Shown: positions 6,778 to 12,749, counted from the stretch's first letter. The stretch: DNA of 64,000 nucleotides from an uncultured Chloroflexia bacterium (GCA_963746075.1 CAVUZY010000007.1:50451-114450), one strand, 5' to 3'. Notes: generated by a model not told the origin, from the letters alone. A program made the numbers and translations.

Positions 6778-7434
6778 GTGACCGATCCCGACGCCTCCGC
6801 CCCCGTCAATTCCGCCGTCGCGACGCGGCGCGGGGACGACGGCACGACCGGCCTCCTGTTCGGCGGTGAGCGGATCGCCAAGGACGACCTCCGGACCGAT
6901 GCCTACGGCACGATCGACGAGGGTGTCGCGGCGCTCGGGCTGGTCCGGGCGCAGCTTGCCTCGACCCACCCCGGCGGCCTCGAGCTCGCCGTCGGCGACC
7001 TCGCCGCGCTCGTCCTCCGGATCCAGCGCGAGCTGTTCGTCGCAGCCGCCGAGCTCGCAACCCAGCCGGCGGCCTGGGATCGCCAGGTCGACGGCGTCAG
7101 CCGGGTCACCGCAACGATGGTCGACGGGGTGGACGCCCTGCTCCGCGACGCCGAGGCCACGATCGTCATGCCGACGGAGTTCGTCGTTCCCGGCGAGACG
7201 CTCGTCAGCGCGGCGCTGGAGCTGGCCCGGACCATCGTCCGGCGATCCGAACGAAGGGCAGTGACGCTCGGTGCGGAGGGATTGATTCCGGGACCGCATT
7301 TGCTACCGTACCTGAACCGCCTCGCGGATCTGCTCTGGGTTCTCGCACGAGCGGCGGAACAGGCCGAGGCGCGGTCGGCCCCGCCATCACGACCAGATCG
7401 ACGGAAGGCACCCGCCACGAGGAGCGAACGATGA
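6778..7434 (+). CDS. PduO-type cob(I)alamin adenosyltransferase
   Basis: TRRGDDGTTGL, AYGTIDE, IQRELF, ARTIVRRSER and YLNRLADLLWVLAR. Confidence 0.9.
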   Translation: MTDPDASAPVNSAVATRRGDDGTTGLLFGGERIAKDDLRTDAYGTIDEGVAALGLVRAQLASTHPGGLELAVGDLAALVLRIQRELFVAAAELATQPAAWDRQVDGVSRVTATMVDGVDALLRDAEATIVMPTEFVVPGETLVSAALELARTIVRRSERRAVTLGAEGLIPGPHLLPYLNRLADLLWVLARAAEQAEARSAPPSRPDRRKAPATRSER

Positions 7435-8135
7435 GCTTCAACGACCAATACGGCGCAGCGCCGTCCACCCTCGGCGTCCGGCCGTCGACGGAGCTGGCGA
7501 CCAGGTTCCTCAGCCAGTCATTCGGCTGGATGTTCGCCGGGCTCCTCCTGACCGCCGTCATCGCCTTCATCGTCCAGGGCCAGCCATCGATCATCCGGGC
7601 CGTCCGCCCGCTGTGGTTCGTGCTCGTCTTCGGCCAGCTCGGTCTCGGGATCGCGATCCAGGGCCTGATGCCGCGGATGACGGCGACCCTCGGACTCGGC
7701 CTGTTCTTTGTCTTCGCGGCGACGATGGGCATCACCGTCGGCGTGATCGTCTCGCTCTACCGGGTGGAGTCGGTGATCACGTCGTTCGTTGCTGCCTCGG
7801 CGATGTTCGGAGCGGCCGCCGTCTACGGGGCGACGACCAAGCGCAGCCTGACCTCGCTCGGCGGCTTCCTGTTCATGGGCATGATCGGATTGCTCGTGGC
7901 GTCGGTCGTGAACATCTTCCTCGGCAGCAGCCCGCTCGGCTGGGCGATCGCGCTGATCGGCGTGATCGTCTTCACCGTGTACACCGCCTACGACGTCCAG
8001 CGGATCTCGTACGGCGACTACGCGGCGTCGCTCGGCTCGGTCGAGAAGGCGTCGGTCCTCGGTGCGATCCACCTGTACATCAACTTCGTGAACATCTTCC
8101 TGTTCCTGCTCCGGCTGATGGGGTCGCGTCGCTAG
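7431..8135 (+). CDS. Bax inhibitor-1/YccA family membrane protein
   Basis: Seven hydrophobic segments; TAYDVQRI and LYINFVNIFLFLLRL. Confidence 0.9.
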   Translation: MSFNDQYGAAPSTLGVRPSTELATRFLSQSFGWMFAGLLLTAVIAFIVQGQPSIIRAVRPLWFVLVFGQLGLGIAIQGLMPRMTATLGLGLFFVFAATMGITVGVIVSLYRVESVITSFVAASAMFGAAAVYGATTKRSLTSLGGFLFMGMIGLLVASVVNIFLGSSPLGWAIALIGVIVFTVYTAYDVQRISYGDYAASLGSVEKASVLGAIHLYINFVNIFLFLLRLMGSRR

Positions 8136-8319: not shown

Positions 8320-8488
8320 TTGCCAAATATTCGCCCGCGGACTGCTTGGCGCGGATCACGCCCCGAATTCGAGGACAAACGGGCCATCTATGCCTTCGCG
8401 TTAGCCGCAGACGGCAACGTTGCCGCTCGAGGAGCCGCGGACGACTCGAGCATCGAGCCGAAGAGTCCGGGGGCGAATATTCGGCCAA
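8320..8488. repeat. Imperfect palindromic intergenic element (MITE/REP-like candidate)
   Basis: 8323-8353 and the reverse complement of 8454-8484 match at 25/31 positions; the perfect 14-bp palindrome cggcaacgttgccg lies at 8412-8425. Confidence 0.6.
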
Positions 8489-8552: not shown

Positions 8553-11500
8553 CTAAACCGCCGGAGCCACGCCTCCGGCGAGCAGCGCCGTCAGCGCCTC
8601 GGGTGGCTGCGGCCGGGCGAACCAGTAGCCCTGGCCGCGGTCGCAGACGAGCTCGCGCAGGCGCTCGAGCTGGCACTCGTTCTCGATCCCCTCGGCGACG
8701 ACCTCGATGCCGAGGCCATGGGCCAGCGCGATGACCGCCTTCACGATCGGCAGGTTCGAGTTGTCGTCGTCGATGCCGGCGACGAAGGAGCGGTCGATCT
8801 TGATCGTGTCGAGTGGCAAGCGCCGGAGGTACGAAAGCGACGAATAGCCGGTCCCGAAGTCGTCGAGCACGAGCCCGACGCCGAGGTCGTGGATCGCGCG
8901 CAGGGCATTGGCGACGTCCTCGCCCTCGTCGAGCAGGACCGACTCGGTGATCTCGAGCTCGAGCCGGTCGGGCGGCAGGCCGGTCGCTGCGAGGATGGCC
9001 TGGATCTCGTCGACGAGCGACGCATTGGCGAACTGCCGGGCCGACAGGTTGACGCTCATCACGAGCGCCGATTCGGGCCGGTCGTCGAGCCACTGACGGG
9101 CCTGGCGGCAAGCGGTCTCGAGGACCCAGCGCCCGATCGCCACGATCAGCCCCGTCTCCTCGGCGACCGGGATGAACGCGAGCGGCGAGATCAGCCCGCG
9201 GGTGGGGTGCTCCCAGCGCACGAGCGCCTCGACCCCGACGATCCGGTCGGTCGCGAGGTCGACGATCGGCTGGTAGTGCAGCCGGAGCTCGTCGCGATCG
9301 AGCGCCCGCCGGAGGTCGTTCTCGATCTCGACCCGATCGAGCGTGGCCGTGCTCATCTCGGGCTCGAAGAGGACATAGCGCGGACCCGGCGATGCTTTCG
9401 CCCGGACCAGGGCGACCTCGGCCTCGCGGAACACGTCGCCCGGGGTGGCCTGACCTGGCCAGGCCATCGCGATGCCCATGCTGGCGTTGACGTACCAGTC
9501 GCGGCCGCCGAGCTCGAACGGTTCGCGCAGCTCGGTCAGGATCCGATCGGCCGTCCGATGGGCCTCGTCGACGCCGACGATCCCGTCGAGGATGACCGCG
9601 AACTCGTCGCCACCGAACCGAGCGACCGTGTCGCCGGGCCGCAGGCAGCGCTGGAGCCGCTGGCCGACCGCCACGAGCAGCGCGTCGCCGACGGCATGGC
9701 CGAGGCTCTCGTTGATCACCTTGAACCGGTCGAGGTCGAGCAGGATCAGGGCGATCGGCGCGGCGTCGCCTGGCCGGGTCCAGGTGAGCGAGTGGGCGAC
9801 GCGATCGCTCAGCAGGTCGCGGTTCGGGAGGCCCGTGATCGGGATCGTACAGGGCGCCGCGCTGGGCCGCCTCGAACAGGTGTGCGTTGTCGAGGGCGAT
9901 CGAGGCCAGCTGAGCGAACCGGCTCAGGGCCGCGATCTCGCGCGTCCCGAACGTCCGCTCGTAGCTGCCCGACGCCAGGCCGATCACGCCGACGACCCGG
10001 CCGCCCGACGTCAGAGGGACGCCGACGACGGCCCCGAACACGAGCGTCGGCATGTCGCCGGCCCGGTTCGACCAGGCGTCGTAGTCGTCGACGGCGACGG
10101 GCCGGCCCTCGCGATAGACGAGGCCCGACAGCCCGCTGTCGACCGGCATCCGGTAGCCGAGGAAGTCGGTGAAGATGCCGATCCCGTGGCGGACGACGAG
10201 CGAGCCGCGGTCCGGTTCGACGAGGTAGATGAACCCGTGCGGCGTGCCGAGCAGGGCGGCGGCCCGGCTGATGATCGTCTCGAGCAGATCCTCGGGGTCG
10301 TGCCGGTTCATCAGCGCGATCGCGGTCTCGTCGAGGGCCGAGAGGTACGGATCGCGGCGGGCCGCCTCGGGATCGTCGGACAGGGTCGCCGGCTTGCTCA
10401 GATAGAGCGACTGGTCGGCGGCGGACACGAGCTCGTCCTTTGTCAGGCCGTCGTCCGGGTAGCAGGCGACGCCGGCCGAGATGCCGACGCGCGGGCCGGT
10501 CGGCGACGGGATGCTCGCGACGCCGCGGCGCAGCCGTTCGACGACCTCGAACGCGTCGATCCGGCTCGCGCCGGGCAGGATCATCGCGAACTCGTCGCCG
10601 CCGTAGCGGTACAGGGCGTCGCTCGCTCGCGTGGCGGCCCGCATCGCGTCGCCGACACCGGCCAGCAGGGCGTCGCCCGCCGGGTGGCCGCATGTGTCGT
10701 TGAAGCCCTTGAACGCGTCGAGGTCGAGCATCAGGAGGGCGAACGGGCTGCCCTCGGCGGCGGCGATCTGCTGGGCCAGCTCGCGCTGGAACGAGCCGTG
10801 GTTGCGGAGGCCGGTCAGGGCGTCGTGCTCTGCCCGGACGGTGATCGCGCCATGGGCCTCGGCGTTCTCGAGGGCGAGCGACGCCTGTCCGGCGAAGAGC
10901 TGGACGAGCTCGAACTCGTACTGGCTGAAGAACGCCTCCTCGCCACCCATCCGGGCGACGTTGAGCGTCCCGACGACGGAACCGCCGACGCGGACCGGGA
11001 CCACGATCATCGCCTCGGGCTCGTACGGCGTGCCCGGAATCTGGACGGAGCGCGGGTCGGCCAGGGCATCGTTGGCGAGCACCCCCTCGCCGTGGGCGAC
11101 GACCCAGCCGCTGATCCCGACCCCGATCGGCCCGGCATAGTCGAGGATCACGTCGGCGAACCGGTCACGGGCGACGACGGCGCGCCGGACGCCCGCCTCG
11201 AAGTCGCAGCGGTAGATCGTCAGGGCGTCGTACGGGACGATCGCCTTGAGCGAGTCTGCGATCATCTCGAGGATGCCCTTGGGGTCGCGGGTCGAGATGA
11301 GCCGCTCGTTGATGTCGAGCAGGCGGCGCTGGCTGGCCAGCTGATGCTCGAGCTCGCGCCGCTGCCGGTCGAGCTCGGCGAGCTGGGTTGCGTTCACGAT
11401 CGCCTGGGCGGCGTACCCGGCGAAGATCGTGAGCGTGGTCTCGTCCTCGTGCTCGAACCGGCTCGATTCGTCGGCCGACAGCACGATCACCCCGTACACG

Positions 11501-12617
11501 TGGTTCTCGAAGCTGATCGGGACGGCGAGGATCGCCTGGATCCGATTCGGTCGCAGGCGCGGGATCGCCCGGGGATCCGATCGCACGTCGTCGACGAGGA
11601 CGGCTTCGTTGTGCTCGGCCGCCCAGCCCGTCACGCCCTCGCCGACCGGGAAGCGGAACTCGTTCCAGTCGGGTTCGGTGCTGCCGAGGAACGTGCCCCG
11701 GAACGCGATCGGCTCGCACATGTTCGTGTCGTGATCGACGCGAGTACACCCGGATCGACTCGTACGTGATCATCCGCTCGCAGCCTTCGACGATCAGCTC
11801 CGCGATCTCGGTCAGGCCCCGCGTCCGGTTCAGGCGGACGGCGAGATCCTGGACCGCCTCGAGGCGGACGGCGAGCGAGCGGACCGAATCGTGGAGGCGG
11901 GCGTTGCCGACCGCGGTTGCCATCTGGTTGGCGAAGCCGGCGGCGAGCGCGGTCTCCTCGTCGGTCCAGGCGTGGACCACGTCCTGGTACAGCACGAGCA
12001 GCCCGACCGGCTCGTCACGGAAGATCATCGGGGCGAAGCACACGCTCCGGATGCCGTTTCGGGCGTAGAGGTCGCGGACCTCCTCGGTCGGGGTATCGGT
12101 GAGTGTGTCGGTGAGGGTCACGACGCGGCCGGTCTGGATCGCATGGAGGCCGGCGGACCCGGCATCGGCGCGGAGCCCCGAGACCCAGTCGAGGACCTCG
12201 TCGGTCAGCCCATGCTGGGCGGCCAGGCTGAACGGAAAGCGACGCGGGGCGTGATAGAGCCAGAGGCCCATCCGGGCGAGGGAGAACAGGTTCATCGCAT
12301 CGGCGACGACGTCGGCGAACAAGCGTCTCGAGGTCGATCTGGCCGCTGACCTCGGCGGCCAGCCGGCCGAGCGCCTCGGCGCCCGCCTTCGGATCGTGGA
12401 GGACCCGCATCCTCGCGCCGTCCGGTCGGCGCCGCGCGAGCCACGCATCGAGGTCGGATCGCCGAACGAGCGGGTCCTCGCGCGGGCCGGCGACCGAGGG
12501 CAGGCGCCCGCTCACGCACCACGCCCGGGCGGTGCCGCGGGTGATGCCCGCAGCGGCGGCGACCTCGCCCAGGGTCAGGAGCGCGTCGTGATCGGGTGGT
12601 TCAAATGCGACGGCCAT
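8553..12617 (-). CDS. Multidomain c-di-GMP enzyme: excisionase-like HTH, 3 GAF, GGDEF, GAF, GGDEF, EAL (frameshifts near 12320, 11740 and 9835)
   Basis: LLTLGEVAAAAGITRGTARAW...RRSDLDAWL (HTH_17-like); four GAF-like repeats; RASDALYRYGGDEF; RPGDTVARFGGDEF; VEALVRW, EITES, LDDFGTGYSS and EGIE. At 9835 one extra C interrupts YDPITG. Confidence 0.85.
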
Positions 12618-12749
12618 TGTGCGGCGGCGGTGACCTCGGTCTGGAGCATGCCGGCGGGCGCGCGAAATCGGACGTGGTCGCGCGGGCCCGCGGCTGTGAC
12701 CAACGGTACGGGCGAGGGACCTCGGCGGGCGATAGCCCAGAGGTACCGC

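Follow-up and report, generated by a model that had tools for sequence, protein, structure and literature searches.

A predicted two-module cyclic di-GMP turnover protein with an accessory BldC-like head in Limnocylindria

Results

The gene and its orthologues

The DNA analyzed here, referred to as the window, is a stretch of 64,000 nucleotides from an uncultured Chloroflexia bacterium (GCA_963746075.1, CAVUZY010000007.1:50451-114450). On its minus strand, at 8553..12617, lies one intact chromosomal gene of a soil bacterium belonging to the Limnocylindria (Chloroflexota). All observations taken together are best explained by an intact gene whose breaks are assembly artefacts and whose product is a soluble two-module c-di-GMP turnover protein with an accessory DNA-binding head, a reading in which we have good though not complete confidence. 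Limnocylindria are abundant uncultured bacteria of soil and freshwater, and we know of no signalling protein that has been studied in them. A literature search retrieved no paper linking Limnocylindria and c-di-GMP.

The gene extends from an ATG at 12617 to a stop codon at 8553-8555 and encodes 1353 amino acids after three spurious bases are skipped. Along the gene, the reading frame steps from 0 to 1 to 2 and back to 0, each step corresponding to one skipped window base. The surplus bases are located on the minus strand at 12320..12324 (FS1, junction ..QIDLETL/FADVV..), 11741..11741 (FS2, ..IRVYS/VDHDT..), and 9840..9840 (FS3, ..GALYDP/ITGLPNR..), and deletion of 12320, 11741, and 9840 gives exactly the 1353-residue read-through. 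For FS2, a short-read contig from run X3 (151 nt, 11640-11791, no mismatches) lacks base 11741. For FS3, base 9840 is missing from two contigs, one of run X6 (151 nt, no mismatches) and one of run X7 (155 nt). Around FS1, at 12262-12348, the same-study runs X1-X4, X6, X7, and X26 give no coverage, and the support there comes from relatives and orthologues: three near relatives, each represented by a short-read contig from a different study, are one base short at 12321-12324. The orthologous locus L014 is one base short at 12321 and likewise at FS2 and FS3. When the coding sequence was aligned with this intact locus (90% identical), exactly three unpaired surplus bases remained in the window. 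One low-depth contig of run X6 is also a base short at 8785, a position at which two other runs support the window sequence; therefore, single depth-2 contigs are not error-free.

The family alignment revealed the same picture. At least 112 clusters of intact, full-length, single-ORF orthologues with 58-95% identity were found, several of them exactly 1353 residues long, and one of them, P0001 (95% identity, 1353 residues), is colinear with the read-through. The three junctions are free of gaps in the alignment, and the orthologues are colinear across all of them. Whole-genome matches without internal stops were obtained in genomes of the same genus and the same family. The locus has conserved neighbours, namely Bax1-I, Cob_adeno_trans, and FeS_assembly_P. 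We conclude that the architecture constitutes a syntenic orthologue family within one family of Limnocylindria. Its description as uncommon in the initial annotation does not hold in the sense of a one-off, given the number of intact orthologue clusters at a syntenic locus, some of which JGI already annotates as 'diguanylate cyclase/excisionase family DNA binding protein'. Our literature search found no paper on an HTH fused to GGDEF, with or without intervening GAF or PAS domains, on HTH-GAF or MerR-GGDEF proteins, or on an excisionase-type HTH together with GGDEF and EAL. The matches for 'tandem GGDEF' concerned GGDEF-EAL tandems.

Since the short-read contigs, at FS2 and FS3 from the same population, lack the extra bases and intact orthologues are colinear, we conclude that each of the three frame changes reflects one base wrongly inserted in this assembly. 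The assembly, which was probably made from long reads, comprises 7 contigs, yet the genome is rated 76% 'complete'. That the insertions exist in the organism and mark a decaying gene is extremely improbable. The window sequence as given is indeed broken at three places, and FS1 is without any same-population read. However, two of the three bases are missing from short-read contigs that otherwise match the window exactly. Every one of the changes is a +1 insertion, and without them the protein matches the length of P0001 perfectly and keeps every motif. The single ORF proposed initially is borne out by otherwise identical contigs at 11741 and 9840, near relatives at FS1, and colinear single-ORF orthologues. 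The gene should be called as one ORF of 1353 residues, with the breaks treated as assembly errors and not as biology.

Domain architecture

Pfam profiles gave the order HTH_17, three GAF domains, GGDEF, GAF, GGDEF, and EAL for the read-through, which agrees with the order and the motifs (RASD..GGDEF, RPGD..GGDEF, EAL, DDFGTG, EGIE) noted before; all coordinates below refer to the minus strand. The HTH_17 domain, a BldC/MerR/Xis-type winged helix, covers residues 13-64 (12426..12581; 32.7 bits, cut-off 27). It is followed by a linker at residues 65-94 (12336..12425) that is predicted to be disordered, with an AF2 pLDDT below 50 at residues 68-82, and whose length varies widely among orthologues. 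Four GAF matches (PF01590/PF13185) score above the cut-off: GAF1 at residues 95-236 (11909..12335, spanning FS1), GAF2 at 266-406 (11398..11821, spanning FS2), GAF3 at 443-583 (10867..11289), and GAF4 at 772-909 (9889..10302). Compared with solved GAF structures, they gave weak matches (best E 6e-7), none pointing to a ligand. GGDEF1 occupies residues 595-742 (10390..10833), with a RASD I-site at 663-666 and the GGDEF motif at 672-676. GGDEF2 occupies residues 921-1075 (9390..9855, spanning FS3), with a RPGD I-site at 992-995 and the GGDEF motif at 1001-1005. Together, the two stretches reach 267.8 bits for PF00990, GGDEF1 alone contributing 135.8 bits (cut-off 23.8). The EAL domain at residues 1099-1335 (8610..9320) scores 274.9 bits for PF00563 (cut-off 31.3) and displays the full catalytic set, comprising the EAL Glu, the Asn, the EITES Glu, the DDFGTGYSSL loop 6, the KID Lys, the EGIE Glu, and the Gln. 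A hydropathy scan of the protein revealed no transmembrane segments.

Catalytic residues

Both cyclase domains carry the expected signatures: LDLDAFKGFND and GHPAGD in GGDEF1, LDLDRFKVINE and GHAVGD in GGDEF2, and in each a GGDEF motif preceded at a distance of five residues by an RxxD I-site. These residues are under strong constraint. The GGDEF motif is kept in 111 of 112 orthologues for GGDEF1 and in 109 of 112 for GGDEF2, the metal-binding Asp and the guanine-contacting Asn/Asp in 109-112 of 112 for both domains, and the GHxxGD and LDLDxFKxxN(D/E) motifs are nearly invariant. The R..D pair of I-site 2 is present in all 112 orthologues, and that of I-site 1 is kept among the variants listed. 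Each EAL motif is retained in at least 108 of 112, conservative variants (EITET, GQGF, KIDRTF) included. The phosphate-binding Lys equivalent to PleD K442 occurs in both GGDEF domains. The position four residues further on, which we take to be the equivalent of the phosphate-contacting Arg446 of PleD, differs: in GGDEF1, after the ..AK.. helix, it is Leu in the window protein and in P0001 and Arg in most orthologues, whereas in GGDEF2 the Arg sits at +6 instead of +4 throughout the family. The claim that both GGDEF domains are intact stands for the motifs and the RxxD sites and needs qualification at the Arg446 equivalent. Judged by these residues, one GGDEF domain, or both, might be able to bind nucleotide yet fall short of full cyclase activity.

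A protein with net phosphodiesterase activity, in which one or both GGDEF domains mainly sense nucleotide for the EAL domain (GTP at the A-site or c-di-GMP at the I-site) and are not cyclases, appears unlikely. Several GGDEF-EAL hybrids do use their GGDEF as a nucleotide-sensing regulatory domain, and a fully canonical EAL next to a Leu in GGDEF1 and a displaced Arg in GGDEF2 would fit such a role. However, the conservation of the GGDEF motif, the metal Asp, the guanine contacts, and RxxD in 109-112 of 112 orthologues exceeds what regulatory GGDEF domains usually show. Moreover, MorA, the closest solved tandem, is reported to be bifunctional, and so are, in vitro, the GAF-GGDEF-EAL proteins MSDGC-1 and Rv1354c (PMC2994820). 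By its sequence, the protein probably both makes and breaks c-di-GMP.

Two modules in one chain

Two paralogues in the same genome resemble the two parts of the protein. Identity to paralogue L004 (HTH_17-GAF3-GGDEF) is 37% over residues 78-742, and to paralogue L003 (TM-GAF-GGDEF-EAL) 43% over residues 835-1348. Between the two GGDEF domains it is just 34%, on which ground we rejected a recent tandem duplication. Because of this divergence, and because each GGDEF has its own GAF with a short helical linker and is nearest to a different stand-alone paralogue, the protein seems to have arisen by fusion of two types of module, HTH-GAF3-GGDEF and GAF-GGDEF-EAL.

The initial annotation had proposed an intramolecular pseudo-dimeric enzyme, whose active site for two GTP molecules would lie between GGDEF1 and GGDEF2 of a single chain. 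We consider this very unlikely. In nearly every orthologue, both domains retain GGDEF and the motifs for GTP and metal, and the approximately 180 residues between them, consisting of GAF4 and a partly flexible linker, would sterically permit contact. However, the same low identity and separate kinship that suggest a two-module fusion speak against such a pairing, and a short continuous helix with DxLTGL at its end connects each GGDEF to the GAF preceding it. In solved enzymes, a GAF-helix-GGDEF joint of this kind is characteristic of domains that pair between the two chains of a parallel homodimer. No result points to contact between GGDEF1 and GGDEF2. The pseudo-dimer is therefore unsupported, and we favour the fusion of two modules.

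The DNA-binding head

The head was modelled confidently as a BldC/MerR/Xis-type winged helix with the topology beta-alpha-alpha-beta-beta-alpha; the AF2 model has a pLDDT of ~90 at residues 11-60. This model, which was run on the head, agrees with the proposed N-terminal excisionase/HTH_17-like domain. A Foldseek search returned BldC-DNA complexes as the best matches (TM 0.82-0.87, rmsd 1.2-1.3 A), the seven BldC chains together ranging over TM 0.79-0.87 (normalised to BldC), followed by SoxR, NmlR, Xis, RacA, and RdfS; BrlR was also among the matches. A profile search of the PDB matched 6amk and 6ama at E 0.001, while a single-sequence PDB search was too weak to be informative (6ama E 0.36, best match E 0.12). 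As for PF12728 elsewhere, paralogue L004 scores 37.6 bits and orthologue L005 20.9 bits, which is below the cut-off of 27.

Of the 113 family sequences, made up of 112 orthologues and the read-through, 35 lack the head by clean in-frame loss, and its presence and absence require nine parsimony changes on the tree versus 30 expected from shuffling. The HTH has thus been lost about nine times within the family, and it is an accessory, dispensable add-on and not the functional core. Because many orthologues have lost the head, the enzyme core would work without it. A separate HTH gene is ruled out, as orthologues have the HTH in the same ORF and HTH-less forms retain the MAVAY.. start.

Upstream of the gene, at 12702..12747 on the minus strand, we found a conserved element consisting of GGTACC-NN-TGGGCTATCGC (12729-12747), an 18-nt gap, and CGTACCGTT (12702-12710). 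Within the latter block, TACCGT fits a TANNNT -10 motif, and the element looks like a promoter. It occurs once in the window and precedes 15 orthologous loci, HTH-bearing and HTH-less alike; at L015, L016, L017, L019, and L020, one block or both deviate from the strict patterns. The element had no Rfam match at E<=1, and in RNAalifold (-8 kcal/mol) the covariation term was positive and lent no support to an RNA fold. An RNA was rejected on these grounds, and we read the element as acting at the DNA level, as either promoter or operator. An operator for the protein itself was rejected as well, since HTH-less orthologues also possess the element. Within the genes' own upstream regions, no 8-mer was present in at least five of nine HTH-bearing loci and missing from all five HTH-less ones, and the HTH-bearing loci shared no direct repeats.

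The combination of a DNA-binding domain with a competent c-di-GMP enzyme, as in trigger enzymes of the PdeL type, is present here at the level of sequence and fold. The initial annotation had suggested an enzyme that may be tethered to DNA, or a transcription factor that makes and reads its own c-di-GMP. The protein could act as a regulator whose output is mainly transcriptional, with the I-sites and the EAL, by binding or turning over c-di-GMP, controlling oligomerization and thereby DNA binding by the BldC-like head. We regard this as possible but doubtful. The confident BldC/MerR-type model of the head argues for it, as does the precedent of PdeL, an active c-di-GMP enzyme that carries an HTH (PMC5052742); BrlR, a MerR-type protein solved with bound c-di-GMP, is among the fold matches. 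On the other hand, the enzyme core has remained strongly constrained through repeated losses of the HTH, no 8-mer or direct repeat is common to the HTH-bearing loci and missing from the HTH-less ones, and the sole conserved upstream element occurs whether or not the HTH is present. Another role for the head, which we consider improbable and put forward with even more reserve, is that it may load the enzyme head-to-tail on chromosomal repeats, so that c-di-GMP would be turned over locally at promoters or DNA occupancy would toggle between cyclase and phosphodiesterase. If this were true, the HTH-less orthologues would represent the 'untethered' form of the same enzyme, and the protein would be a DNA-templated local source and sink of c-di-GMP joined to a transcription factor, which goes beyond PdeL. 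We retain the reading of the head as an accessory to a c-di-GMP turnover protein.

Discussion

Proposed working of the protein

We propose that the soluble 1353-residue protein, an HTH-GAF x3-GGDEF module fused to a GAF-GGDEF-EAL module, would form a parallel homodimer via its GAF domains and helical linkers, as argued from analogy to solved GAF/PAS-GGDEF enzymes. Each GAF set would gate the GGDEF that follows, and like domains would pair across the dimer to produce c-di-GMP. The RxxD I-sites would subject both cyclase domains to product inhibition, and the MorA-like EAL domain would hydrolyse c-di-GMP. Ligands of the GAF domains may switch the net output between synthesis and breakdown. The winged-helix head on its floppy linker would be accessory: it may position the enzyme on DNA or titrate it there, or provide a further, PdeL-like transcriptional output.

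Comparison with known systems

The GGDEF2-EAL part (residues 920-1353) aligns end to end with MorA of Pseudomonas aeruginosa (PDB 4rnh, E 1.9e-115; also 4rnf), with every signature motif of the GGDEF and EAL domains in common. MorA sits in the membrane and senses through PAS domains, whereas the window protein is predicted to be soluble and has GAF sensors, an extra GGDEF module, and an HTH. The closest solved structures for GGDEF1 are the diguanylate cyclase 9t28 and WspR (3i5b); PleD (1w25) was also matched. GGDEF1 aligns with WspR and PleD over its whole length, including the RxxD five residues before GGDEF, but these proteins are controlled by receiver domains, and GGDEF1 of the window protein has Leu at the position equivalent to Arg446. 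By domain order, the GAF4-GGDEF2-EAL module can be likened to MSDGC-1 of M. smegmatis and Rv1354c (MtbDGC), which are, unlike the window protein, ~620 residues long, with a single GGDEF and without an HTH (PMC2994820).

Cph2 likewise combines several GAF domains, two GGDEFs, and one EAL in one chain with two sensor-output modules. Its GAF domains are, however, bilin photosensors, its first GGDEF is degenerate (HGDGF), its domain order is different, and it lacks an HTH; in the window protein, both GGDEF motifs are canonical. The head is best matched, by profile and by fold, by BldC of Streptomyces (6ama, 6amk) at 28-31% identity. BldC multimerises on direct repeats. It is a stand-alone protein of ~70 residues, whereas the head described here is tethered to an enzyme body of 1290 residues. 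E. coli PdeL (YahA), with an N-terminal HTH on an active c-di-GMP enzyme domain, is a precedent for DNA-bound enzymes (PMC5052742), but has a LuxR-type HTH, an EAL domain only, and a known self-operator. The window protein has a BldC/MerR-type HTH as well as cyclase and GAF domains, and no operator was found in its own upstream region.

Since each part, and with PdeL also the idea of an HTH-enzyme, is already known, no new category is opened. Its sequence identifies the protein as a predicted variant of the known GAF-regulated bifunctional c-di-GMP enzymes. One conserved syntenic chain combines four sensors with a phosphodiesterase domain and two cyclase domains, all three of the canonical type. 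Its close orthologues with and without the BldC-type head offer a natural experiment on what a c-di-GMP enzyme could gain from a DNA tether.

Reading frame and frame changes

In a region of ~70% G+C, we traced the gene (8553-12617, minus strand) from its ATG at 12617, which has a GAGGT about 16 nt upstream, through three further frame pieces that end with the stop codon TAG (8553-8555). The reading frame shifts from 0 to 1 to 2 to 0, and exactly one window base is skipped per step. The frame changes, all on the minus strand, lie at 12320-12324 (FS1, between QIDLETL and FADVV), 11741 (FS2, between IRVYS and VDHDT), and 9840 (FS3, between GALYDP and ITGLPNR). Deletion of bases 12320, 11741, and 9840 yields a protein of 1353 aa. 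According to Pfam, this read-through comprises an N-terminal HTH_17 domain (the head; residues 13-64, 32.7 bits at a cut-off of 27), GAF1 (95-236), GAF2 (266-406), GAF3 (443-583), GGDEF1 (595-742), GAF4 (772-909), GGDEF2 (921-1075), and EAL (1099-1335). Frame tracing and Pfam analysis bore out the coordinates, domain order, and motifs of the initial annotation. A hydropathy scan revealed no transmembrane segment.

Sequence comparisons identify the three frame changes as assembly errors. The source genome comprises 3.55 Mb in 7 contigs with a completeness score of only 76%, a pattern typical of long-read assemblies with residual indels. For comparison we used short, low-depth, window-identical contigs from public soil-metagenome runs of one study. 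Base 11741 was absent from one contig of run X3 (151 nt, 0 mismatches to the window), and base 9840 from two contigs of different samples, X6 (0 mismatches) and X7. The runs of this study do not cover FS1. There, three further studies each supplied a 151-nt contig with 93-95% identity to the window, and every one of these contigs lacked one base at 12321-12324. Alignment of the coding region with an intact orthologous locus (L014, 90% identical) left exactly three unpaired extra bases, at FS1-FS3. Single low-depth contigs are fallible, because a depth-2 X6 contig lacks base 8785 in the EAL domain, on which the window, X2, and X3 agree; this gap reflects either noise or a strain whose copy is broken. 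The argument for an artefact is carried by the agreement among independent samples and orthologues. Two non-coding differences, base 8366 (absent from an X3 contig) and base 12724 (absent from L014), are consistent with further insertion errors of the assembly.

A conserved orthologue family

A protein search with the read-through returned at least 120 clusters among the matches listed, all with E = 0 and 58-95% identity, including at least 112 full-length orthologues (1290-1460 aa). One cluster, P0001, shares 95% identity with the read-through and has its exact length, 1353 aa. The source records use the names "Candidatus Limnocylindrales bacterium" and [quoted passage not shown]. An alignment of 112 orthologues contained no gap or insertion at the three junctions, and the junction peptides DLETLFADVV, IRVY[RS]VDH, and ALYDPITGLPNR are among its best-conserved stretches. 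Among 151 genomes of the class, full-length, stop-free matches came from the window's own genus and from several genera of its family, and other families held partial relatives only. In some genera of the family (G080, G107, G113, G038, and G074), the match was split within one long open frame (~1500 aa); this variant carries an additional inserted segment of ~130 residues between GAF4 and GGDEF2.

In every orthologous locus examined, the next gene downstream is a convergent Bax inhibitor-1/YccA-family gene (window 7431-8135, plus strand). Cob_adeno_trans and FeS_assembly_P genes usually come after it, and the gene on the upstream side is not constant. Tandem GGDEFs or excisionase-HTH fusions had initially been considered uncommon, but the gene proved to be a conserved, syntenic orthologue with at least 112 full-length clusters rather than a one-off.

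Upstream of the gene we found a two-block element (12702-12747, minus strand), consisting of GGTAC-N3-TGGGCTATCGC and, after ~17-20 nt, (C)GTAC(C/G)GT, a sequence compatible with a TANNNT -10 motif. All 15 orthologous loci that we examined have the element ~75-130 nt ahead of the start codon (L005 about 1390-1435; equivalent places in L006-L009 and L014-L021), five of them in slightly variant form. The intergenic DNA outside it is unalignable. The element gave no Rfam match and no covariation support, and is probably a promoter, which may include an activator site. Genome-wide, block 1 has one exact copy and three two-mismatch copies, versus none for the reversed control. One two-mismatch copy, GGTACTTCTGGGGCATCGC (G000:C3:114221-114239; L011 1822-1840, minus strand), is found in the same genome 20 nt before the ATG start of a membrane GGDEF and HD-GYP-like gene. 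It may hint that c-di-GMP genes share a regulatory site, or its position may be due to chance.

Catalytic residues and origin of the tandem cyclases

The GGDEF motif is conserved in 111 of 112 orthologues for GGDEF1 and in 109 for GGDEF2. The first RxxD reads R..D in every listed variant, the second (RP[GSA]D) is present in 112/112, and GHxxGD and LDLDxFKxxN(D/E) are nearly invariant. Each element of the EAL set (EAL, N, EITE[ST], DDFGTGYSSL, KID, EGIE, GQG) is retained in at least 108 of the 112, counting conservative variants. This conservation comes with two caveats. At the position equivalent to PleD Arg446, GGDEF1 has Leu in the window species and P0001 and Arg in most orthologues; in GGDEF2, Arg lies two residues further on, family-wide. 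GGDEF1 aligns with WspR and PleD, and GGDEF2-EAL can be aligned along its full length with the MorA tandem (4rnh, E 1.9e-115). The GAF domains matched solved GAF structures only weakly, with no ligand indicated.

The genome encodes about 16 GGDEF domains in total. An intact paralogue of 1019 aa (G000:C7:335457-338516; L004 1282-4341, minus strand) contains HTH_17/MerR_1, ~200 aa, three GAF domains, and GGDEF, and is 37% identical to residues 78-742. Because this paralogue sits in the same genome, the HTH-GAF-GGDEF design has been used more than once in the lineage. A second paralogue, an 854-aa GAF-GGDEF-EAL membrane protein, is 43% identical to residues 835-1348. GGDEF1 and GGDEF2 share only 34% identity, and each is joined to its own upstream GAF by a short unbroken helix ending in DxLTGL. 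On the simplest reading, the gene would have arisen long ago when a cyclase module fused to a bifunctional GAF-GGDEF-EAL module.

The putative DNA-binding head and its loss

A profile of the first 100 residues matched PDB 6amk and 6ama (E 0.001), RppC, and mycobacteriophage Xis. AlphaFold2, run with the orthologue alignment, predicted a beta-alpha-alpha-beta-beta-alpha winged helix for residues 11-60 (pLDDT ~90), followed by a disordered stretch (residues 68-82, pLDDT <50). The closest Foldseek match was BldC in DNA complexes, with 28-31% identity, TM scores of 0.79-0.87 (seven chains, normalised to BldC), and a best rmsd of 1.2-1.3 A; MerR-family heads (SoxR, NmlR), excisionases, RacA, and c-di-GMP-bound BrlR came next. 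This head is probably a DNA-binding domain.

Linker length between head and GAF1 varies widely within the family. Across its 113 sequences, counting the read-through with the 112 orthologues, the HTH is present in 78 and absent from 35. The latter, which include P0025, P0028, P0048, P0065, P0083, and P0108-P0120 and loci L007, L008, L009, L018, and L019, keep the MAVAY.. start and continue directly with the conserved pre-GAF helix, a clean in-frame loss of about residues 12-65. The trait changes nine times on the enzyme-core tree, compared with a mean of 30 for shuffled labels; therefore, loss of the head is recurrent. It has also occurred within the window's own genus (L007). The head is dispensable, and the orthologues that naturally carry or lack it form a series that offers the most useful handle.

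Proposed working and known systems

Judged from solved GAF/PAS-GGDEF enzymes, the most likely form of the protein would be a parallel homodimer, with GGDEF1 paired to GGDEF1' and GGDEF2 to GGDEF2'. Ligands bound by the GAF sets would shift the helical register and thereby gate each cyclase. Cyclase output would be limited by c-di-GMP at the RxxD sites, and hydrolysis of c-di-GMP would fall to the EAL domain. We infer this mechanism as a whole, from dimer through gating to turnover. The initial annotation had instead proposed an intramolecular GGDEF pseudo-dimer, which is unlikely; nothing points to such pairing, and the module history counts against it. Its other idea, a transcription factor that would synthesise its own c-di-GMP and respond to it, is a minority possibility, made weaker by the recurrent loss of the head. 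A self-operator would be the simplest form of regulation through the HTH; in 14 orthologous upstream regions, a search for one found no 8-mer or direct repeat common to HTH-bearing loci yet absent from HTH-less ones.

A literature search for this HTH-GAF-GGDEF-EAL combination found no paper, and in the Limnocylindria lineage it is uncharacterised. All of its parts are known, as is the general idea of an HTH joined to a c-di-GMP enzyme. Mycobacterial GAF-GGDEF-EAL proteins perform both reactions in vitro (PMC2994820), Cph2 illustrates that two sensor-output modules of opposite activity are possible in one chain (PMC10124867), and PdeL that an HTH-bearing c-di-GMP enzyme can act as a "trigger" regulator (PMC5052742).
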